This document shows, piece after piece, positions 12,067-22,414 of a DNA stretch of 25,125 nt. Within the stretch, counting starts at the first letter, position 1. The number at the start of each line of letters is the position of its first letter. Both the position numbers and the translations under genes were made by a program. The stretch is from Phycisphaerales bacterium (GTDB lineage Bacteria > Planctomycetota > Phycisphaerae > UBA1845 > G020352895). The DNA is taken from NCBI GenBank assembly GCA_020352895.1, contig CP070685.1, positions 1,819,120 through 1,844,244 on the forward strand, read 5' to 3'. The notes under the pieces were generated by a model, which made no database searches, had not been told where the DNA came from, and saw only the letters and a list, made by a program, of their open reading frames with translations.

Positions 12067-12604
12067 GTTGGCTCTCTCCCCTCTCCGATGTTGAAGCCAG
12101 TCGGTTACAGACCCGAACCGCTGCGCGCCGCGTTCGCGCGGGTAGCTCTGCCCGGCCGACGGGGACTGGGGTAGATCCACCTCTGTGGCGCGCGTACGCG
12201 CAGAACAAAGCTGCGTTACGTAGTCAGGCGCAACTATCGCACTCTGTCACGGCACGAGCGACCCACCTGCTGCCGCTCTGGTCAGCCGCGTACGACCTCC
12301 GGCTGACCAGGACAACAAGCTGATGCGGCGTGGTTTTCCTGGCGACGGTACGCAAATGTAGGATGAGAAAACGGTAGAGTCTGGCATGTCTCTCCCTCCT
12401 TCCAGACAGGCAGGAATCGCTTGTGCCGCGTTGCGCGCCCTCAACTTCGGCGGGCACAAGCACACACAACCTCCACAATGGTCAGTATACGCGGGCAGCC
12501 GCGCGTGTCAAGTGCTCGACGCACCCAGATTCTGTGGCCATGTGCTGGCCCGTACCCGCGCGCAGCGGTGGCCGGGCGAGCGACGGGCAGTTACTATCCC
12601 CTCC

Positions 12605-13117
12605 ATGAAGGCGGTCACTATCTACACCGACGGGGCGTGTCAGGGAAACCCGGGGCCGGGGGGCTGGGCGGCGATCCTGAAGTACGGGCGGACGCGGCGA
12701 GAGATCAGTGGATCGTCGCCAGCGACGACGAACAACCGCATGGAGCTGACCGCGGCCATCGAGGCCCTGCGGGCCCTCAAGGAGCGCTGCCGCGTCGATC
12801 TGCACACCGACTCGACGTACCTGCAGCAGGGCATGACCAGTTGGCTGGCTGACTGGAAGGCCCGCGGATGGAAGACGGCCGCCAAGAAGCCGGTCAAGAA
12901 CCGTGACCTGTGGCGGGCCCTCGACGCCCAGGCCGCGCGGCATGACATGCACTGGCACTGGGTCAAGGCTCACAACCTGCACCCGGAGAACGAGCGCTGC
13001 GACGAGCTGGCCGTCGCTGCCATCGAACAGCTCCGCGCCGAAATCGGCGAGGCCGCCATTGCCCGGGCCATGCGCGCGTTCCGATCGGGCGACGATCCCA
13101 ACACCCTTTTCCAGTGA
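12605..13117 (+). CDS. rnhA: Ribonuclease HI
   Basis: '[25 protein letters not shown]...[17 protein letters not shown]...[28 protein letters not shown]...[21 protein letters not shown]' matches the RNase H catalytic D-E-D-D signature. The start is set at the ATG at 12605, because the track ORF extends upstream without any homology. Confidence 0.85.
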
Positions 13118-13781: not shown

Positions 13782-14195
13782 CGTTGCATCACTCCTGTTG
13801 CCAGATCACGGCCCTCGGCCGCGCACGACCAGTGTCCCCGAAACGCGCCGGACGGTCAACTGGTGCAAGTGCATCCATGAACTGGCCAGTGTTGGCCTTA
13901 CTGGGCCGTAGTCAGGTGGGCGCAGGAGGAAGGCCTCTGGCCGGAGATTCCCGCCTGGAAGTCCTTTTCGCCGGGCGTCCGCCGGCTCGTGAGACGAAAC
14001 CGATCCGGCGCCCGGGCCAACGTGGCGAGCTTGCCCACGACGACAGCATGGTGCGCCCCCCGCTGTGTAAGGCTGAGCCCTTTGCGCTTTCCCGCGCGGT
14101 GGAGGTGGGCGCCGTGTACGAGGCGCTTGCCACGAACAGCCGGCTATGGTCTTATATGCGCAGAGCTCAAACGAAAGGCGCCGGGAGAACCAGGA

Positions 14196-15380
14196 ATGAA
14201 CCCTAAAGACAGCCTCTTTCACCCTCCCAGAGGCAACAACAAGCGTGTCGTCGTTACCGGCCAGGTCGGCCTGAACAAGAAGCCCTTCCTCCGGAAAGTG
14301 GTTGAGTTGGCCTCCAGCAACGGCCACGTTCTCAGACAGCTCAATATCGGCGACATGATGTATGCCGAGGCGCCCGATGTCGTGCCCGGCCGCATCCTCG
14401 ATCTGCCCCTCGGCCGGCTCAACACGCTGCGTCGCTCCGTGTTCAAGGACGTTCTGGCCCAGGCCCGGGGCGAGAACGATATCCTGGTCAACACCCATGC
14501 CACGTTCCGCTGGAAGCACGGCCTTTTTCCGGCCTTCGACTTTGACCACATGCTGCAGTTCGATGCCGACCTGTACATCACCTTGGTGGACAACCTCGAC
14601 GCCGTTCACGAATGTCTCGACCGAGACTACAACATAGACCACAGCCTCAAGGACATCATGGTCTGGCGCGAGGAGGAAATTCTGGCCACGGAGATTCTGG
14701 CTTCCAGCCTGGGCAAGTTCGGGTGTTTTTACATCCTGGCCCGCGGCTTCGAACGTGACACGGTGCAGTCCCTCTACAGCCTCATCTACGAGCCCGAGAA
14801 GCGCAAGGTTTATCCCTCCTTCCCCATGACCCACGTCATGGACATGCCCGAGACACTCGCTGAGATCGACGCCTTTCGCGACGTGCTGGCCGAGCATTTC
14901 ATCACCTTCGACCCTGGAGATCTCGACGAGAAGCGTCTGCTGATCGACGCCGGAGACGCCACGAAGCGCGGGGAGGACACGATCACCATGCACGTGTCCG
15001 GTCGTGATGTCTCCTTCAGCGTGAGCGAGATCACCAGCGTGGCAGGGGACATCGACGGCCAGATCTACGCTCGGGACTTCAAGCTCATCGATCAGTCCGA
15101 CATGATCGTCAGCTACGTTCCGGAACTGCCCAACGGCAAGCCCGGACTTTCCAGCGGGGTGGAGCGCGAACTTCAGCACGCCCACGAGGTCACCAAAGGC
15201 GTCTACGTCGTCTGGAAGCCCAAGTGCGAACCTTCGCCCTTCATTACCGAAACCGCCGATGAGGTCTTCTCCACCGTCGAGCAAGCCCTGGATTTCTTCC
15301 AGCGCAAAGGTTACATAGGGCACTATCAGCTCAACTTGGTCAGGGGTCAGGCACCGCGCGAGCGCGGCCGCTTGGGATGA
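14196..15380 (+). CDS. Two-domain protein: archaeal-type adenylate-kinase-like (AdkA-like, degenerate P-loop) N-terminal domain fused to a nucleoside 2-deoxyribosyltransferase-like (NDT/SLOG-like Rossmann) C-terminal domain
   Basis: The start is set at the ATG at 14196 (MNPKDSLF...) with GGGAG upstream; the track ORF starts at 13989. The N-terminal domain ('KRVVVTGQVGLNKKP...LNIGDMMYAEA...ILVNTHATFRWKHGLFPAFDFDHMLQFDADLYITLVDNLDAVHECLDRD') parallels archaeal AdkA (VTGxPGVGKST...YGDxM...IDTHAxIRTPxGYLPGLP...INP..IxxLEADP), but its Walker A is GQVGLNKK rather than GxxGxGK[ST]. The C-terminal domain ('DQSDMIVSYVPELPNGKPGLSSGVERELQHAHEVTKGVYVVW') matches the NDT-family D..D(x)IVA...G..D.GTA.EIGYA.A.GKPV motif. 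Confidence 0.65.
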   Translation: MNPKDSLFHPPRGNNKRVVVTGQVGLNKKPFLRKVVELASSNGHVLRQLNIGDMMYAEAPDVVPGRILDLPLGRLNTLRRSVFKDVLAQARGENDILVNTHATFRWKHGLFPAFDFDHMLQFDADLYITLVDNLDAVHECLDRDYNIDHSLKDIMVWREEEILATEILASSLGKFGCFYILARGFERDTVQSLYSLIYEPEKRKVYPSFPMTHVMDMPETLAEIDAFRDVLAEHFITFDPGDLDEKRLLIDAGDATKRGEDTITMHVSGRDVSFSVSEITSVAGDIDGQIYARDFKLIDQSDMIVSYVPELPNGKPGLSSGVERELQHAHEVTKGVYVVWKPKCEPSPFITETADEVFSTVEQALDFFQRKGYIGHYQLNLVRGQAPRERGRLG

Positions 15381-15407
15381 TTCCGACGGGCTGCACAACC
15401 GCCCCGG

Positions 15408-15435
15408 CTTGACACTAATAGGCCTCTTGCTACCA
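15408..15435 (+). promoter_or_regulatory. Candidate sigma70-type promoter for the BMC operon
   Basis: Perfect -35 TTGACA (15408-15413), 16-nt spacer, -10 TACCAT (15430-15435). It lies about 40 nt upstream of the rpiB-deoC ATG. Confidence 0.35.
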
Positions 15436-15472
15436 TGCCCGATCGCCGTCGCGGCAGGTGCGAAAGGACACG

Positions 15473-16897
15473 ATGCCCTCTTCTTCAAAGATAGATTCGG
15501 TCGCCATCGGCTCGGATCATGCCGGCTTCGGCTTGAAGAAGCATCTGCGCGAGTATCTCGAGAAACAGGGCTACCGTGTGGAGGACTGCGGCACGTTCAG
15601 CGAAGACCCCGTGGATTACCCGCGCATCGCCCACGCGGTGGCGGGACGCGTGGCCGGCCGGCGCGCCACCTTGGGCATCGTCATCGACGGCGCGGGCATC
15701 GGTTCGGCCATGGCTGCCAACAAAATGCCCGGAGTCCGCGCCGCCTTGTGCTACGATCTTTCCTCGGCGCGCAACAGCCGCGAGCACAACAATGCCAACG
15801 TCATGACACTCGGAGCCCGCCTGATCGGCGGGGGCCTGGCCGAGCAGATGGTCGATGTCTGGCTGACCACCGAGTGCACTGAGGAGCGCCACCTGCGGCG
15901 GGCGGCCATGATCGAGGATGTCTCCGGGGCTCCGTCCGTATCATCCGGCAATCCCTCGGCGACACCTACGCCTCCGGCCGACGCACCGCCCACGGGCGAC
16001 CTGGCCGGCCTGTCCGGCGAGGACCTGCAGCGCGTCGTGGAGCGCATCGCCGCCATCATCAGCACCGGTCAGGTACTGCCCTCCGGTCTGGGCGGCTCCT
16101 GCGCGGAGTTGCTCTGTCGGCTGGCCCGGGAATCCGGCCGTACCGATCCCGAGACCGTCCGGCATTTCATCGGCCTGGGTGCCGACCGGGTCGGCCATCG
16201 CCCGGGCGACGGCGAATTGCCCAGGGACATCGCCGAATACATCGATCACACCCTGCTGCGCCCCGACGCCACCCGCGAGGAAATCATCAAGCTTTGTCAG
16301 GAGGCCCGCCAGCACTCCTTCGCTTCCGTGTGTGTGAACCCGACCTACGTCACCCTGGCGGCCCGTGAGTTGAAAGGTACGCCGGTCAAGGTGTGCACCG
16401 TGGTCGGCTTTCCGCTGGGAACCCACACTCCTGAGATTAAGGCCATGGAGACCCGCCGGGCCATTCGCGAAGGCGCCAGGGAAATCGACATGGTCATTAA
16501 CGTGGGCGCGCTCAAGAGCGGCGACGACGAAACGGTCCTGCGCGACATCGCGGCCGTGACCGAAGCCTGCCGTGACGGCCGTGCCATTTGCAAGGTGATC
16601 ATTGAGGCGGCCCTGCTGACCGACGAGGAGAAGGTCCGGGCCTGCCAGTTGGCTCGCCGGGCCAAAGCCGATTACGTCAAGACCTCCACCGGTTTCGGGC
16701 CGGGCGGGGCCACCGCCCACGACGTGGCCCTGATGAGCCGGACCGTTCGCGAGGCCGGCATTGGCGTCAAAGCTGCCGGTGGCATCCGCAGCTTCGCTGA
16801 CGCCCAGAAAATGATCGAGGCCGGGGCCACCCGCGTGGGGGCCAGCGCCGGCGTCAAGATCGTCAAGGAGGCCAAGGACGTGACCGAGTCCGTTTAG
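15473..16897 (+). CDS. deoC: Fusion protein: ribose-5-phosphate isomerase B (RpiB/LacAB) N-terminal domain, a Pro/Ala/Ser-rich linker, and deoxyribose-phosphate aldolase (DeoC) C-terminal domain
   Basis: The ATG at 15473 has an AAAGGA RBS; the track begins at a GTG at 15458. The N-terminal '[35 protein letters not shown]...[28 protein letters not shown]...[12 protein letters not shown]' is RpiB-like. The C-terminal '[11 protein letters not shown]...[10 protein letters not shown]...[11 protein letters not shown]...[14 protein letters not shown]...[14 protein letters not shown]...[14 protein letters not shown]...[10 protein letters not shown]' is DeoC-like and includes the Schiff-base Lys region. 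Confidence 0.85.
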
Positions 16898-16919
16898 TCT
16901 CAGCGGGAGGACCGATTAC

Positions 16920-17546
16920 GTGGTAGATCTTCGTTCCTACGTGTTTCTGGACAGCCTTCAGCCCCAGTACGCCGCCTTCCTGGGCACCGTGGCTCAAGGG
17001 TTTCTCCCTATCGCCGGCATGGCCTCGCTCTACGTGGAGATCTCTCCGGGTATCGAGATCAACCGGATCACGGACATCGCCTTGAAGTCCACACATGTCA
17101 CCCCGGGCATGCAGATCGTCGAACGGCTCTATGGGTTGCTGGAGATCCACTCCGAATCCCAGGCCGACGTGCGCCAGGCTGGCCGGGCCATCCTTTCGGC
17201 TCTGGAACTGGACGAGAAGGATCGGCGCAAACCGCGCGTCCTGTCCTCGCAAGTTATCCGCCGCATCGACGACCACCAGACGCAGTTGATTAATCGCATG
17301 CGTCACGGCAACATGATCGAGCCGGGCCAGACCCTGTACGTGATGGAACTGGAGCCAGCGGCCTACGCCGCTTTGGCGGCCAACGAGGCCGAGAAGGCCG
17401 CCAACATCAACATCCTTGAAGTCCGCTCCTACGGCAGCTTCGGCCGCGTGTACCTGGGCGGCGAGGAACGTGACATCGACGTCGGCTACCGCGCCGCCGA
17501 AAGCGCCATCGCCGGCGTCACCGGACGCGAAGCGGAACAAAAGTAA
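16920..17546 (+). CDS. Tandem BMC-domain shell protein (BMC-T-like), copy 1
   Basis: GTG start at 16920 preceded by GGAGG. Two BMC-like halves are present: '[56 protein letters not shown]' and '[60 protein letters not shown]'. Both parallel the (L)GxIE...A.A.DA..KAA.V.L pattern seen in the canonical BMC-H that follows. Confidence 0.6.
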
Positions 17547-17586
17547 GCCTATTGCCAACCTGAATATGCATTGAGAGGTATCGAAT

Positions 17587-17901
17587 ATGGCAGAAGCCCT
17601 GGGAATGATTGAGACGCGCGGATTTGCCGCCATGGTCGAAGCTTCCGACGCGATGGTCAAAGCGGCCAAGGTCGAGCTGGTCAGCTACGAGAAGATCGGC
17701 GGCGGCTACGTGACGGCCATCGTGCGCGGCGATGTCGCCGCGGTCCGGGCGGCATGTGAGGCGGGACAGGCGGCGGCATCACGCGTCGGCGAGATCGTCT
17801 CCGTGCACGTCATCGCCCGTCCGCACACCAATATCGATCTGGTTCTTCCTCTGGGTCGGACCGAGCAGGTCAAGGCCGAGGTCAAGAAGATCACCAGATA
17901 G
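17587..17901 (+). CDS. BMC-H hexameric shell protein (PduA/EutM/CcmK family)
   Basis: '[60 protein letters not shown]' is the canonical BMC domain. 104 aa, ATG at 17587. Confidence 0.9.
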
Positions 17902-17976
17902 TCCCGACTTCTCCGCTTGCAGGCCTCCGCCTGTGGTCGCGTCCGTCGCGGCCGCTACGCGGAGCGAGGAGGACGG

Positions 17977-18273
17977 ATGTTATTGGCCAAAGTCATCGGT
18001 ACCGTGGTGGCCACGCGCAAGGAGCAGAGCATGGAAGGGCTGCGCTTCATGCTGCTCCGCCAGGTGGATCTGGACGGTCACGAGTCCGGCGGGCACGTGG
18101 TCGCCGCGGACGTGGTCGGCGCCGGCCCCGGAGAGATGGTCCTCTACGCCACGGGCAGCTCCGCCCGCCAGACCGTCGCAACGGACAAGCGCCCCTGCGA
18201 CGCGGTGATCATGGCCATCGTGGATAACTGGGAAGTCAACGGCCAGATCAAATACAAGAAGGGAGCCGAATGA
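17977..18273 (+). CDS. BMC-P pentameric vertex protein (EutN/PduN/CcmL family), paralog 1
   Basis: The ATG at 17977 ([17 protein letters not shown]...) has a GAGGAGG RBS; the track starts at 17917. '...[11 protein letters not shown]...[24 protein letters not shown]...[13 protein letters not shown]' is typical EutN/CcmL. Confidence 0.85.
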
Positions 18274-18296
18274 CCCGTTTCCTCGGGCGCTGACCC

Positions 18297-19757
18297 ATGG
18301 CCGGACTGACCGAACAACAGGTCGAACGCATCGCTCGCCAGGTGGTCGAACGTCTCGGCGGGGCAGTCCCCGTCCCCGGCGTACCGGCTTCGGCCGCAGC
18401 GCCTGCGGCGGCGGTTCCCCCCGTCGAGCTCGTCGAGGGCATCTTTGCCGACGTGGACTCGGCCGTTCATGCCGCCGCCGCCGCACAGCGCGAACTGATG
18501 GGAATGACCATCAAGAAGCGCGATCAGATCGTCGCCAGCATCCGCCAGGCCATGGCCGCCAACTGCGAGTCTCTGGCCCGGATGGCTCACGAGGAAACCG
18601 GCCTGGGACGCATCGAGGATAAGATCGTCAAGAACTCCACCGTCACCGAGAAGACGCCCGGCACCGAGGACCTCACGCCGGACGCTCGTTCCGGTGATCG
18701 CGGGCTGGTCCTTTTCGAGCCCGCGCCCTTCGGCGTCATTGGGGCGATCACGCCGATTACCAACCCGACCTCCACCATCATCTGCAACACCATCGGCATG
18801 GTCGCGGCCGGCAACGGAGTCGTGTTCAACGTGCATCCCGGTGCCAAGCGCTGCTCGGTACACAATGTCTACCTGATCAATCAAGCCATCCTGAAGGTGG
18901 GCGGCCCCGCCAACCTGGTCACCGCCGTGGCCGAGCCGACCATCGAGTCCGCCCAGGCCCTCATGAAACATCCCGACGTGAACCTCATCGTCGTGACCGG
19001 CGGGCCCGGTGTCGTGCGGGCGGCCCTCAACAGTGGCAAACGGGCCGTTTGCGCCGGCCCCGGCAACCCGCCCGTGGTCGTCGACGAAACTGCCGACCTC
19101 GAGCAAGCCGGCCGCGACGTCGTCTACGGCGCCTCATTCGACAACAACGTCGTCTGCGTCGACGAGAAGACGCTCATCGTCGTTGACTCGATCGCCGACG
19201 AGTTGGTGCGATCCATGACCCGGCAGGGGGCCATCAGGCTGACACCCGTACAGGCCCGCCAGATGGAGCGGGCGCTCTTCGTCGAGAACAACGGTCCCGG
19301 CAAACCGTCCGTCGTGGACAAAGACCTGATCGGCCGGAACGCCAACGTGATCCTCGCCCGCATCGGAGTCAAGGCGGATGCTTCGGTGCGCTTGGCCGTC
19401 ATGGAGGTTCCCGCCGATCACACTCTGGTGTGGACCGAGCAACTCCTGCCGGTCCTTCCCATGGTCCGGGTCAAGACCGCCGACGAAGGCATCGACCTGG
19501 CCGTGCGCTCGGAACAGGGCATGCGTCACACGGCCGTCATGCACTCCAAGAATCTGGACAATCTCAGCAAGATGGCCCGCGTGATGAACTGCAGTATTTT
19601 CGTCAAGAACGGTCCGGCCGTCGCGGGACTCGCCGCCGGCGGAGAGGGCTATTGTTCCTTCACCATCGCCAGCCCCACGGGAGAGGGCCTGACCAAGGCC
19701 CGCCATTTCTCCCGCGCCAGACGCTGCACCTTGGTGGACCACTTTCGAATCGTATGA
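18297..19757 (+). CDS. CoA-acylating aldehyde dehydrogenase (PduP/EutE-type BMC signature enzyme)
   Basis: 486 aa. The N-terminal ~60 residues are Ala/Pro/Val-rich and look like an encapsulation-peptide or linker region. 'GAITPITNPTSTIICNTIGMVAAGNGVVFNVHPGAKRCS' is the PduP/EutE active-site region with the catalytic Cys in 'VVCVDE'. Its stop overlaps the next start (ATGA at 19754-19757). Confidence 0.85.
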   Translation: MAGLTEQQVERIARQVVERLGGAVPVPGVPASAAAPAAAVPPVELVEGIFADVDSAVHAAAAAQRELMGMTIKKRDQIVASIRQAMAANCESLARMAHEETGLGRIEDKIVKNSTVTEKTPGTEDLTPDARSGDRGLVLFEPAPFGVIGAITPITNPTSTIICNTIGMVAAGNGVVFNVHPGAKRCSVHNVYLINQAILKVGGPANLVTAVAEPTIESAQALMKHPDVNLIVVTGGPGVVRAALNSGKRAVCAGPGNPPVVVDETADLEQAGRDVVYGASFDNNVVCVDEKTLIVVDSIADELVRSMTRQGAIRLTPVQARQMERALFVENNGPGKPSVVDKDLIGRNANVILARIGVKADASVRLAVMEVPADHTLVWTEQLLPVLPMVRVKTADEGIDLAVRSEQGMRHTAVMHSKNLDNLSKMARVMNCSIFVKNGPAVAGLAAGGEGYCSFTIASPTGEGLTKARHFSRARRCTLVDHFRIV

Positions 19758-20374
19758 AAACTTTTCCGGCCATTGCTCTGATCGAACTGGACAGCATCGC
19801 CCGTGGTGCTCTCGCCGGCGACGCCATGGTCAAGAAGGCACCCATCGAGATGCTGCGCTCGGGCACGGTGCACCGGGGCAAGTATCTGGTGCTCGTGGGG
19901 GGCACGGTGGCCGCTGTGGAGGAGTCCTTCGAGGAAGGCCTGCGCGTGGCCGGCGACCGCCTGGTCGATCGTGTCATCCTGCCGGACGTGCATGAGCAGG
20001 TCCACGATGCTGTGCTCGGTGCGCGTCGAGCCGAAGCGGACGACGCCCTGGGAGTGATCGAGACCTCGACCGTGGCCGCCACCATCCACGCGGCCGATGT
20101 GGGAGTCAAAGGTGCCGCCGTGACCGTCAAGGAGATTCGCCTGGCCGACGGACTGGGCGGCAAGGGAATCGTACTGTTTACCGGCAAAGTGGCCGACGTC
20201 GAGGCCGCCGTGGCCATCGGCACGAGCGTCCTGGACGAACACAAATGCGACGTGTGCACGACGGTCATTCCGTCGCTTCACTCGGAGATGGTCAGCAACA
20301 TGATTGAGACGTCGCGGTTCTTCTCTGCGGGCCGAGAGACTGAACGCCCCGGCGGTGTTTCGGAAGAGGGATAA
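19754..20374 (+). CDS. Tandem BMC-domain shell protein (BMC-T-like), copy 2
   Basis: The ATG at 19754 (MKTFPAIALIELDSIARGALAGDAMVKKAPIEML...) is translationally coupled to the aldehyde dehydrogenase. The two BMC-like halves are 'IALIELDSIARGALAGDAMVKKAPIEMLRSGTV..GKYLVLVGGTVAAVEES' and 'ALGVIETSTVAATIHAADVGVKGAAVTVKEIRLADGLGGKGIVLFTGKVADVEAAVAIG'. Confidence 0.7.
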   Translation: MKTFPAIALIELDSIARGALAGDAMVKKAPIEMLRSGTVHRGKYLVLVGGTVAAVEESFEEGLRVAGDRLVDRVILPDVHEQVHDAVLGARRAEADDALGVIETSTVAATIHAADVGVKGAAVTVKEIRLADGLGGKGIVLFTGKVADVEAAVAIGTSVLDEHKCDVCTTVIPSLHSEMVSNMIETSRFFSAGRETERPGGVSEEG

Positions 20375-20378
20375 TGAC

Positions 20379-20651
20379 GTGCTGTTCGGTCGGGTGATTG
20401 GAACGGTGACCCCTTGCGTCAGTGTCGAGGGCATGACCGGCGTGCCCCTGCTCATCGTCGAGCCGCTGGACAAGACCCTCCAGCCGTCCGGTCGGCCCCT
20501 TGTCTGCGCCGACGCCACCAAACAAGCCGGCCCCGAGCAGTTGATTTACTACGAGGGCGGGCGCGAGGCCGCTCTGGCCCTCGATCCGTGGTTTGTTCCC
20601 GTCGATCACACCATCGTCGGCATCGTCGATGGCGTGCATCGCCGGGAGTAG
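20379..20651 (+). CDS. BMC-P vertex protein (EutN/CcmL family), paralog 2
   Basis: GTG at 20379 (M)LFGRVIGTVTPCVSVEGMTGVPLLIVEPLD...QLIYYEGGREAALALDPWFVPVDHTIVGIVDGV, with a GAAGAGGGA RBS 8 nt upstream. The track ORF 20304..20651 extends upstream without homology. Confidence 0.75.
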   Translation: MLFGRVIGTVTPCVSVEGMTGVPLLIVEPLDKTLQPSGRPLVCADATKQAGPEQLIYYEGGREAALALDPWFVPVDHTIVGIVDGVHRRE

Positions 20652-20696
20652 GAGTCCGGCCACAGCCGGCTGGAATGTCGGTGTCCGGGGGTTCCC

Positions 20697-20999
20697 ATGA
20701 TTCTCGGCGTAGTGAAAGGTGCCATTTACTCGACGATCAACCATCCGGTGTATGATCACCGCAGGCTGCTGATCGTCGATCGCATTCATCCGGACGGGAC
20801 CCCGACCGGCGGATACATCATCGCCCTCGACACCGTCTATGCCGGCGATGGGGAAACGGTCCTGGTCATCGATGAGGGGAATTCCTCTCGGCAGGTAATC
20901 GACGACCCCATGGCCCCGGTCCGATCGGTCATCATCGGGGTGGTGGACGAGATTGCCGCCGACGGACGCACGCTCTATCGTTGCCCCCACCTTCCGTGA
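20697..20999 (+). CDS. BMC-P vertex protein (EutN/CcmL family), paralog 3
   Basis: 'MILGVVKGAIYSTINHPVYDHRRLLIVDRIHPDGTPTGGYIIALDTVYAGDGETVLVIDEGNSSRQV...VIIGVVDEI' is an EutN-like fold pattern. 100 aa. Confidence 0.75.
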   Translation: MILGVVKGAIYSTINHPVYDHRRLLIVDRIHPDGTPTGGYIIALDTVYAGDGETVLVIDEGNSSRQVIDDPMAPVRSVIIGVVDEIAADGRTLYRCPHLP

Positions 21000-21082
21000 C
21001 GTGCCGTGGCCGGCGTGGGCATCCGTGACAGGAACTCACAGGATACCGCCGCGGCCCTACATAGAGGGATGACAGAAGGTCA

Positions 21083-21757
21083 ATGCCCGCAGAATGGCAG
21101 CTCAGGCGCAAGATCGTCGACATCGCTCGTCGGGTGCACGCGCAAGGCTTCGTCGCGGCAACTGACGGGAACATCAGTGCGCGGGCCATGGGCGACCGCA
21201 TGTTCATCACGCCGTCCGGGACCTGCCTCGGCGAGTTGAATCCGGCCGACCTGCTCTACCTGGATTTCGAGCGGCGCGTGCTGGCCGGACGGGGCCGGCC
21301 GTCCAGCGAACTGGCTCTCCATATTGAGGTCTATCACCAGCGGCCCGACGTGCAGGCCGTGATTCATGCCCACCCGCCCGTCACCAACGCCTTCAGCTTT
21401 GCCGGCCTTTCCCTGGCCGACCCGGTCATACCCGAGGTCGTCGTCGCCTTCGGTGCCATTCCCACCACCGAGTATGCCACTCCCTCCAGCGAGGAAGGCC
21501 CCATGGTCATCCGCGGGCTCATCCGACGTCACGACGTGCTTATCCTGCAGCGGCATGGATCGCTAACCGTTGGGGCCGACCTCTCGGACGCCTACCACAA
21601 GCTGGAAAAGCTCGAGCACGCCGCTCGGACCCTTCTGGCGGCCCGCCAACTGGGCAGCGTGAGGGAATTGTCTCCGGACGAGCTGGACCGTCTGGCCACA
21701 GTGGCCGAGAAGCTGGGTTACGGGCGGTCCAGGCTGATTCCGCCCTCCTCACCCTGA
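21083..21757 (+). CDS. Class II aldolase/adducin-family protein (L-fuculose-/L-rhamnulose-phosphate aldolase-like)
   Basis: '...IVDIARRVHAQGFVAATDGNISAR...MFITPSGTCLGEL...ELALHIEVYHQRPDVQAVIHAHPPVTNAFS' shows the metal-binding His cluster typical of FucA/RhaD. 224 aa. Confidence 0.8.
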   Translation: MPAEWQLRRKIVDIARRVHAQGFVAATDGNISARAMGDRMFITPSGTCLGELNPADLLYLDFERRVLAGRGRPSSELALHIEVYHQRPDVQAVIHAHPPVTNAFSFAGLSLADPVIPEVVVAFGAIPTTEYATPSSEEGPMVIRGLIRRHDVLILQRHGSLTVGADLSDAYHKLEKLEHAARTLLAARQLGSVRELSPDELDRLATVAEKLGYGRSRLIPPSSP

Positions 21758-21898
21758 GCCGAAAGACCGCCCGACTCCCCGGTGGCTTCCATTTGTATCC
21801 TCATGCTTCCGGCCGTAAAATTAACCTGAACCCAGAAGCATGGGGCATATCCGTCAAGAGAGTCAGATACGTAGGCTCCGTGATCGGGAGAACCTGTC

Positions 21899-22414
21899 GT
21901 GGATGACGTTAAAACCTGTCAAGGCTGTGGAGCCAGTATTTACCAGGAGCATCTTGACCGGGGTATGGCCGGCTTCGTCGCCGGCAAGCTGCTCTGCAAC
22001 GTGTGCCGCAACCAGACCTTGGGCGGGCCCTCGGCGCCCAGTCCCGGCTCTTCCGGTTCGATGCCCTCGGCCGTCGATCCTTCCGAGGAGACCATCCGGC
22101 TGGTGGATGATGCTGAGGTATCTGCTTCTGTCTCGCCGGGCGGGTCCATGATGGGCGATACGCGTGTGCCCATCGGCCGGGCCGCCTCCGATCTGGTCCT
22201 GACCAGAGCGATGGTCAAGGGCGCCAATGCAACGCGGTGCCGTACTTTCCATGCCAAGCTAAGCGAAGGCGCCTTATCTTACATGGACGAGCAGTTCAAC
22301 GAGTGGTGCGACAGGAACCCGGAAATCGAGGTGAAGTTCGCCACCCAGACGGTGGGCATCTTCGAAGGCAAGCACTCTGCCGAGCAGCACTTGATACTGA
22401 CCGTGTTCTACTGA
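21899..22414 (+). CDS. Hypothetical small protein with an N-terminal CxxC...CxxC zinc-ribbon and a conserved-looking C-terminal domain
   Basis: GTG start at 21899 with GGGAG 8 nt upstream. 'TCQGCGASIYQEHLDRGMAGFVAGKLLCNVCRN' has four Cys. A low-complexity Ser/Pro linker follows, then 'RCRTFHAKLSEGALSYMDEQFNEWCDRNPEIEVKFATQTVGIFEGKHSAEQHLILTVFY'. No known family was recognised. Confidence 0.4.
   Translation: MDDVKTCQGCGASIYQEHLDRGMAGFVAGKLLCNVCRNQTLGGPSAPSPGSSGSMPSAVDPSEETIRLVDDAEVSASVSPGGSMMGDTRVPIGRAASDLVLTRAMVKGANATRCRTFHAKLSEGALSYMDEQFNEWCDRNPEIEVKFATQTVGIFEGKHSAEQHLILTVFY

Follow-up and report, generated by a model that had tools for sequence, protein, structure and literature searches.

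The question raised by this locus is what a two-domain protein encoded directly in front of a bacterial microcompartment (BMC) operon does. The gene lies in a 25,125-nucleotide (nt) stretch of a Phycisphaerales bacterium (GCA_020352895.1, contig CP070685.1, positions 1,819,120 to 1,844,244 of the forward strand; the whole stretch is referred to as the window). The GenBank entry for the exact protein is UCG31560.1, "hypothetical protein JSU68_07820", on a 3.6-Mb contig of a Phycisphaerales metagenome-assembled genome (MAG). The original prediction described an adenylate-kinase-like domain with a degenerate Walker A motif, fused to a nucleoside 2-deoxyribosyltransferase (NDT)-like domain, and proposed that the fusion supplied deoxyribose 5-phosphate (dR5P) to a BMC-linked route. 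Both domains were recovered here, and all of the motifs quoted were present in the 394-amino acid (aa) translation: GQVGLNKKP (residues 22-30), LNIGDMMYAEA (49-59), NTHATFRWKHGLFPAFDFDHM (99-119), and YITLVDNLDAV (127-137) in the N-terminal domain, and DMIVSYV (302-308) and SSGVERELQHAHEVTKGVYVVW (319-340) in the C-terminal domain. The gene and its domains are as follows.

14196..15380, forward strand: coding sequence of the two-domain protein (394 aa, ATG start, TGA stop)
14241..14786, forward strand: AdkA-like domain with the archaeal adenylate kinase fold (residues ~16-197)
14802..15311, forward strand: nucleoside 2-deoxyribosyltransferase/DNPH1-fold domain (residues ~203-372)

The explanation that we favour, with a confidence just short of even, is that the protein belongs to a family of cytosolic (deoxy)nucleoside monophosphate ((d)NMP) N-glycosidases that would supply (deoxy)ribose 5-phosphate to DeoC, and that its N-terminal domain would be a nucleotide-binding module derived from a kinase. 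In the C-terminal domain, Glu325 would be the nucleophile that, assisted by Asp294 and Tyr206, removes the base of a (deoxy)nucleoside carrying a 5'-phosphate, so that (deoxy)ribose 5-phosphate is released; DeoC would then split dR5P into glyceraldehyde 3-phosphate and acetaldehyde. Both folds are well known, and their fusion constitutes an uncharacterised and apparently class-wide family. Foldseek returned no solved chain spanning both domains, and no description of this fusion was found in the literature.

The C-terminal domain showed the Rossmann-like fold of the NDTs. The window protein itself did not match PF05014 even at E ≤ 10, and 10 of 38 diverse family members matched it (best E 1.5e-6). 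The positions that correspond to active-site residues of NDT and DNPH1 proteins were the following.

14811..14825, forward strand: loop Y206-P-S-F-P210 after the first strand of the C-terminal domain (Y206 and P210 invariant)
15075..15077, forward strand: D294, at the position of the catalytic Asp in Rcl/DNPH1 (D69 in rat, D80 in human), 4jen, and the NDT 4hx9
15150..15170, forward strand: S319-S-G-V-E-R-E325, with E325 at the position of the catalytic Glu nucleophile and S319 at that of the 5'-phosphate-binding Ser

In profile-to-PDB alignments, D294 fell on the Asp of Rcl (IHEQD), 4jen (a CMP N-glycosidase), and 4hx9; E325 fell on the Glu of 2khz (GVGYE), 4jen (GTHIE), and 4hx9 (GLGME); and S319 fell on the Ser of Rcl 2khz (PSLGVGYE) and 4jen (VSPGTHIE). 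In members down to 28% identity, Y206, P210, P240, G321, and E325 were invariant, and S208, D294, Q300, and S319 were at least 90% conserved. The Y206-P-S-F-P210 loop would resemble the "YxxGP" Tyr loop of NDTs. In human DNPH1, D80 and E104 are catalytic and S98 coordinates phosphate, the latter being retained as S97 in MilB (PMC10603095). Because S319 aligns with this phosphate-binding Ser of DNPH1 and MilB, the sequence points to a 5'-phosphorylated substrate. We infer hydrolysis rather than transfer.

Among known enzymes, DNPH1/Rcl (2'-deoxynucleoside 5'-phosphate N-hydrolase, 2khz; PMC10603095) has the same C-terminal fold and shares the D294, E325, and S319 positions, and the product predicted for the window protein, dR5P, would suit the neighbouring DeoC. 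The similarity is marginal (E 0.39), and the window protein adds a helix-hairpin insertion of approximately 35 residues (~243-282) and the N-terminal kinase-like domain; in DNPH1/Rcl, a second phosphate-binding Ser (S128') is donated by the partner subunit. The CMP and hydroxymethyl-CMP (hmCMP) N-glycosidases MilB and BcmB (4ohr, 4jen) also share the fold and the Ser/Asp/Glu positions, and 4jen was the best profile match; unlike the window protein, they are single-domain enzymes of antibiotic biosynthesis, and MilB binds phosphate via an Arg. Compared with NDTs (PF05014; PDB 7o62, 6evs, 1f8x, and 4hx9), the window protein falls below the Pfam model, has Ser instead of an acidic residue at the 5' position, and carries the fused kinase-like domain. 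NDTs place an acidic residue (Asp) for the 5'-OH. This difference bears on the proposal that the C-terminal domain swaps bases between deoxynucleosides or deoxynucleotides for pool balance, in the manner of classical NDTs and without a role in catabolism, with the DeoC adjacency being historical. The Ser at the 5'-group contact position, unlike the Asp of NDTs, and an operon-like DeoC pairing that points to sugar phosphate release make such a salvage transferase quite improbable.

The pairing with DeoC was examined in 80 genome loci (flank up to 10 kb) and 80 metagenome loci by tblastn of all window genes, and DeoC was counted over distinct protein sequences (131 assessable loci). A same-strand, stand-alone DeoC immediately 3' of the family gene was found in 7 genome and 14 metagenome loci, and the three DERA active-site motifs were visible in these stand-alone sequences. 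DeoC was located 3' of the gene, in the same orientation, in 19 of the 131 assessable distinct loci, at a distance of ≤400 nt in 15 and of ≤1.5 kb in 4 (two RpiB-DeoC fusions among the latter). On a neighbour-joining tree, one deep clade was DeoC-positive in 15 of its 16 assessable members, and the remaining positives were L096, the window lineage, and L057. By Fitch parsimony, DeoC adjacency required 4 changes on this tree, which is poorly resolved and unreliable in its deep topology. The gene and DeoC were common to 18 of the 19 DeoC-positive loci (median gap 69 nt), and the next commonest neighbour was shared by 6 loci. In a group that otherwise keeps no conserved surroundings of the gene, this pairing is good evidence that the gene and DeoC form a functional two-gene module.

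Besides DeoC, all-versus-all clustering of neighbours brought out only a weak CAP-domain-like protein at 13 loci, a small protein at 11 loci, and lineage-restricted genes. Such partners are relevant to the possibility that the protein acts on another N-glycoside (of the NAD/ADP-ribose type or a modified nucleotide), sanitises the hydroxymethyl-dUMP (hmdUMP) pool in the manner of DNPH1, or is a purely regulatory nucleotide sensor. Consistent with this, NDT/SLOG-like folds serve diverse functions (the matches included YtoQ and MilB as well as a TIR chain), the high conservation suggests a core role, and lineage-specific partners besides DeoC exist, such as the small protein at its 11 loci. However, little or no variation is seen at the catalytic Asp and Glu, which favours catalysis, and DeoC is the most frequent conserved neighbour; we therefore consider these other ligands and roles unlikely.

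The small protein (~110-190 aa) was encoded immediately 3' of the family gene, in the same orientation, at 11 genome loci that all belong to the most divergent clade (L050, L051, L056, L060, L063, and L064, and further L066, L071, L072, L075, and L076; for example, L063:9659-10024). It carries the motif LDLxxLRxxFAxLFDRAAHAVQLxGxEQDDxVxER, is without a Pfam match, and is absent from the window; it may be a lineage-specific partner. The contexts of the distant or cultured homologues P0154, P0271, and P0280 (Poriferisphaera) were uninformative.

The N-terminal domain raises the question of whether the protein is still a kinase. Two regions of this domain are central to the answer.

14259..14285, forward strand: non-canonical P-loop GQVGLNKKP (family consensus TGQVG[VL][DN]KK)
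14340..14450, forward strand: equivalent of the AMP-binding flap region, IGDMMY...PGRILDLP...LRR, with invariant columns among close homologues

A single-sequence search gave a sub-threshold match to AAA_17 (E 5e-4) and weak PDB matches to archaeal AdkA. Foldseek backed the AdkA fold (E 9e-11, TMt 0.77), and the CORE, the AMP-binding flap, and the short LID of that fold were all found in the domain. Because a profile built from 24 diverse members matched six archaeal AdkA sequences (E 2.6e-14 to 1e-8), homology with archaeal AdkA, beyond mere fold similarity, is established. Compared with AdkA (PRK04040/COG2019; PDB 6ln3, 1ki9, 1nks, 6pjw, and 7owe), the window protein is bacterial, adds an NDT-like C-terminal domain of ~190 aa, and has the P-loop GQVGxxKK in place of GxPGxGK[ST]T.

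The degenerate Walker A motif is a real and fixed trait of the family: the P-loop was constant in a set of 54 close homologues and likewise in one of 155, reading TGQVG[VLIM][DEN]K[KR], rarely with T at the end. Relative to the AdkA motif GxPGxG[KG][ST]T, the sixth-position Gly is replaced by D, N, or E, and the Mg-binding Thr/Ser by Lys. In members at 28-47% identity, the P-loop Lys position was occupied by K, R, or S, and position 29 (the Walker A hydroxyl site) drifted among distant members (K, R, A, L, Q, and others). Because P0124 still has GQVGVGKT and others vary at the Lys and hydroxyl positions, the ancestor of the family was a genuine P-loop kinase, and the ATP site has since drifted.

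The flap of archaeal adenylate kinase comprises residues 39-85 (PMC10883716), and in the corresponding region of the family, G52, L68, and R79 were ≥90% conserved in a wider, divergent alignment. The NTHATFRW block, whose basic residue corresponds to a K or R of AdkA, and the family-specific motif VWREEE were invariant or nearly so. Two LID arginines, R138 and R140 (M. igneus numbering), are critical for phosphoryl transfer in archaeal adenylate kinase (PMC10883716); in a hidden Markov model alignment to 3h86 (M. maripaludis AdkA), which is weak in this part, they fell on N146 and D148 (consensus D, x), close to the invariant R143. Because the ATP site has decayed while the NMP-binding flap is highly conserved, we infer that the N-terminal domain would most likely bind nucleotides in order to sense or deliver them, rather than work as a classical kinase. 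AMP nucleosidase (Amn) and PpnN follow the same logic, joining an NMP N-glycosidase domain to a nucleotide-responsive regulatory part and yielding ribose 5-phosphate; their catalytic folds (PNP/UDP-type in Amn and LOG-type in PpnN) are unrelated to the C-terminal domain of the window protein. The role of the N-terminal domain is the weakest part of the model: we favour binding, sensing, or delivery, and an active, unusual kinase is the main rival.

Under that rival, the protein would be bifunctional, with an active but unusual (deoxy)nucleoside or NMP kinase domain making dNMP from a deoxynucleoside and the C-terminal domain cleaving it to dR5P, two steps that would bypass nucleoside phosphorylase and phosphopentomutase. 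The AdkA fold is complete, R79 and R105 (the basic residue of "THAxFRW") are conserved, most members have K or R at the position of the P-loop Lys, and some members have a canonical GKT loop. The pairing with DeoC fits this arrangement equally well, and a natural fusion of a salvage enzyme with adenylate kinase is known (PMC7326950). However, the family does not preserve the Thr/Ser with which Walker A coordinates Mg, and the LID Arg pair, critical in archaeal adenylate kinase (PMC10883716), has no counterpart in the alignment, which is weak there; a bifunctional enzyme is thus somewhat unlikely in our view.

Databases name the members "hypothetical", "AAA family ATPase", or, in many cases at JGI, "adenylate kinase". 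That the protein is a housekeeping adenylate kinase agrees with its AdkA homology and with the name that JGI gives to many members, but the PRK04040 score was 20.2 bits against a curated cut-off of 155 (only model positions 2-102 were covered), the P-loop is non-canonical, and the LID arginines lack an aligned match in a weak alignment. In addition, L139 carries, 3.6 kb past a family member with its DeoC, the 3' part of a canonical bacterial adk of the zinc-lid type (CDRCGG...RDDD...; L139:6187-6453, reverse strand). It was the sole such fragment in the fetched loci, and among the three matches of a protein search with it was an "adenylate kinase [Phycisphaerae bacterium]" with 72% identity. 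That the protein is the sole, housekeeping adenylate kinase is accordingly highly improbable.

The family was large and taxonomically confined. More than 5,400 proteins were recovered at E ≤ 1e-3 among the candidates examined, forming 922 clusters at 50% clustering, with many full-length members at 30-47% identity, and at least 594 species-representative genomes carry the family. Source labels were almost all Phycisphaerae or Planctomycetota (cultured Poriferisphaera included), and the typical identity to the window protein was 60-70%, which is high for such taxonomic depth. The family is a core Phycisphaerae gene, vertically inherited at a single locus, and the tree was compatible with vertical descent. 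Two members occurred on MAG contigs labelled Alphaproteobacteria (NZ_BTVP01000082.1, "Parvibaculum sp.", and JANQQE010000030.1, "Alphaproteobacteria bacterium"); because these proteins nest among Phycisphaerae sequences, the labels are likely the result of mis-binning. The same distribution bears on a role in anti-phage defence or nucleotide signalling, which the original prediction had kept as an alternative. NDT/SLOG/TIR-like folds occur in defence systems, and a weak match to a TIR chain was obtained (E 1.4). No PADLOC family matched at E ≤ 1, the neighbours are housekeeping genes and not a defence island, and at least 594 species genomes carry the gene at 60-70% identity, at a single locus and on a tree compatible with vertical descent. 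A defence protein is therefore extremely improbable.

Several observations weigh against the N-glycosidase explanation. The sequence matches of the C-terminal domain to solved NDT and DNPH1 chains were weak (E 0.2-2), though mutually consistent, and because of this weakness the residue equivalences rest on fold and motif. Approximately 85% of the assessable loci were without an adjacent DeoC, and the adjacency could be one ancestral arrangement kept in few lineages. An identity of 60-70% across a class is unusually high if the enzyme is a catabolic accessory, and this hints that its role is more central. Finally, P0124 keeps the canonical loop GQVGVGKT, and methanococcal AdkA chains deposited as adenylate kinases read GVPGVGGTT without the Walker Lys; because such chains and canonical-loop members exist, motif decay leaves the loss of kinase activity unproven.

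The relation of the gene to the BMC operon was the remaining question. Upstream of the gene are RNase HI (forward strand) and efp (reverse strand, divergent). Downstream, two features mark the start of the operon.

15409..15436, forward strand: sigma-70-like promoter match TTGACA-16-TACCAT with a TG extension, kept in an 86%-identical relative
15458..16897, forward strand: RpiB-DeoC (RPI-DERA) chimera heading an SPU-type (sugar-phosphate-utilising) BMC operon and predicted to consume the product, with the DERA motifs EIDMV, KVIIE, and VKTSTG

The operon (15458-22414) encodes RPI-DERA, a CsoS1D-like BMC-T, a BMC-H, two EutN/BMC-P, AldDH, a tandem BMC, and a class II aldolase, and by its encoded proteins it matches an SPU3-like BMC locus. 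The RPI-DERA chimera has been described for the SPU3 subtype of SPU microcompartments (PMC11585597). Published SPU loci resemble the operon in their RPI-DERA fusion, AldDH, BMC-H/T/P, and class II aldolase, whereas no adenylate-kinase-like or NDT-like component is listed for them (PMC11585597), and homologues of the family are almost always BMC-free. Genes for PTAC and nucleoside phosphorylase, as well as deoB, are missing from the window, the rest of which contains Tad pilus genes, an SPFH protein, a histidine kinase, and a SIS-CBS isomerase, without nucleotide-metabolism genes.

The intergenic gap had been given as 92 nt, which is correct to ATG 15473 but becomes 77 nt if rpiB-deoC starts at GTG 15458. 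The candidate promoter that had been placed between the gene and the operon was found again as the match at 15409-15436, and no terminator was detected 3' of the gene. This candidate promoter would split the gene and rpiB-deoC into two transcription units.

The conserved synteny with BMC loci implied by the original prediction was not observed: across the 80 genome and 80 metagenome loci, shell genes occurred 3' of the family gene only in the window lineage (L081/L088) and in none of the other ~160 loci, and no homologues of the BMC shell, AldDH, or aldolase of the window were detected in the 80 genome loci. L081/L088 (86% identical) had the same order as the window (efp, gene, RpiB-DeoC, shell, AldDH), and L089 (80% identical) had efp upstream and the RpiB part downstream until the contig end. 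The gene as a component of the BMC was therefore rejected. The original interpretation was supported in part: the proposed supply of dR5P to DeoC gained independent support, as a stand-alone DeoC follows homologues in many BMC-free loci and the Ser is aligned, but the link to the BMC is lineage-specific. In the window lineage, the DeoC step would have been recruited, as the RPI-DERA chimera, into a microcompartment handling acetaldehyde.

In the AlphaFold2 (AF2) model, residues 1-16 and 372-394 are coil with low pLDDT, and no terminal amphipathic helix of the encapsulation-peptide type was predicted at either terminus of the 394-aa protein. Because such a helix is missing from the model and the promoter match separates the gene from the operon, the protein is best seen as a probable cytosolic feeder and not as BMC cargo. 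The C-terminus itself is conserved.

15357..15377, forward strand: extreme C-terminal tail RERGRLG (family consensus RERGRFG-COOH), predicted disordered

Near-invariant C-termini were observed in two subfamilies, RERGRFG-COOH in that of ~395 aa and NLFG[HQ]-COOH in a Phycisphaerales subfamily of ~372-378 aa. NDTs use the C-terminal carboxylate of a neighbouring subunit in the active site, and by analogy a catalytic site or one that binds phosphate may be completed by the conserved tail. The threefold symmetry of AdkA combined with the twofold symmetry of NDTs would predict a D3 hexamer.

The reading frame itself was typical of coding sequence (codon-position GC of 0.62/0.36/0.81 for 14196..15380), and ATG 14196 was preferred over GTG 13989 because homologues run 394-398 aa. 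An antisense open reading frame (13806..15488, reverse strand, 560 aa) spans the whole gene with an atypical codon-position GC of 0.76/0.45/0.63; it was rejected as a gene and regarded as a high-GC artefact that recurs in homologous loci only via conservation of the sense gene. The 414-nt leader has diverged from that of the 86% relative L081, except for a shared block, CTTGCCAnGAACnGCCGnCTnTGGTCnnATA (~14126-14158), which may, as a weak lead, be the promoter of the gene; a consensus promoter scan called none upstream of the gene, this block included. No riboswitch or other RNA was found with Rfam in the leader or in the whole window.

Some further neighbours were observed. RNase HI (window 12386-13117) is two genes upstream of the family gene, and in four loci of the divergent clade (L076, L156, L159, and L161) it is encoded on the opposite strand, 400-900 nt 3' of that gene; this proximity may be a synteny remnant. 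The rnhA reading frame of the window has an N-terminal extension of ~74 aa if ATG 12386 is used. A class II aldolase 53% identical to that of the window (21083-21757) lies directly 3' of the family gene in convergent orientation at L095:4764-5432 (reverse strand), a locus without shell genes.

Taken to its full extent, the N-glycosidase explanation would describe an AdkA-derived pseudokinase/DNPH1-like fusion that, with DERA, forms an unrecognised two-gene route from dNMP via dR5P to glyceraldehyde 3-phosphate and acetaldehyde. This route would belong to the Phycisphaerae core, bypass nucleoside phosphorylase and phosphopentomutase, be gated by the adenylate or nucleotide state sensed in the decayed kinase domain, and act in this lineage as a cytosolic feeder of the SPU microcompartment; in all of its parts together, it is possible but doubtful. 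If the C-terminal domain is a dNMP N-glycosidase, bacteria would gain a direct route of the DNPH1 type from nucleotides to deoxyribose 5-phosphate. Substrate supply to SPU microcompartments is currently assumed to proceed via DeoB (PMC11585597), and the route, if true, would fill an undefined step upstream of DERA both in the catabolism of DNA carbon and in these microcompartments. The family would also illustrate how, in nature, a P-loop kinase became what is probably a module for sensing nucleotides, and the widespread label "adenylate kinase", which is probably wrong, would be corrected.

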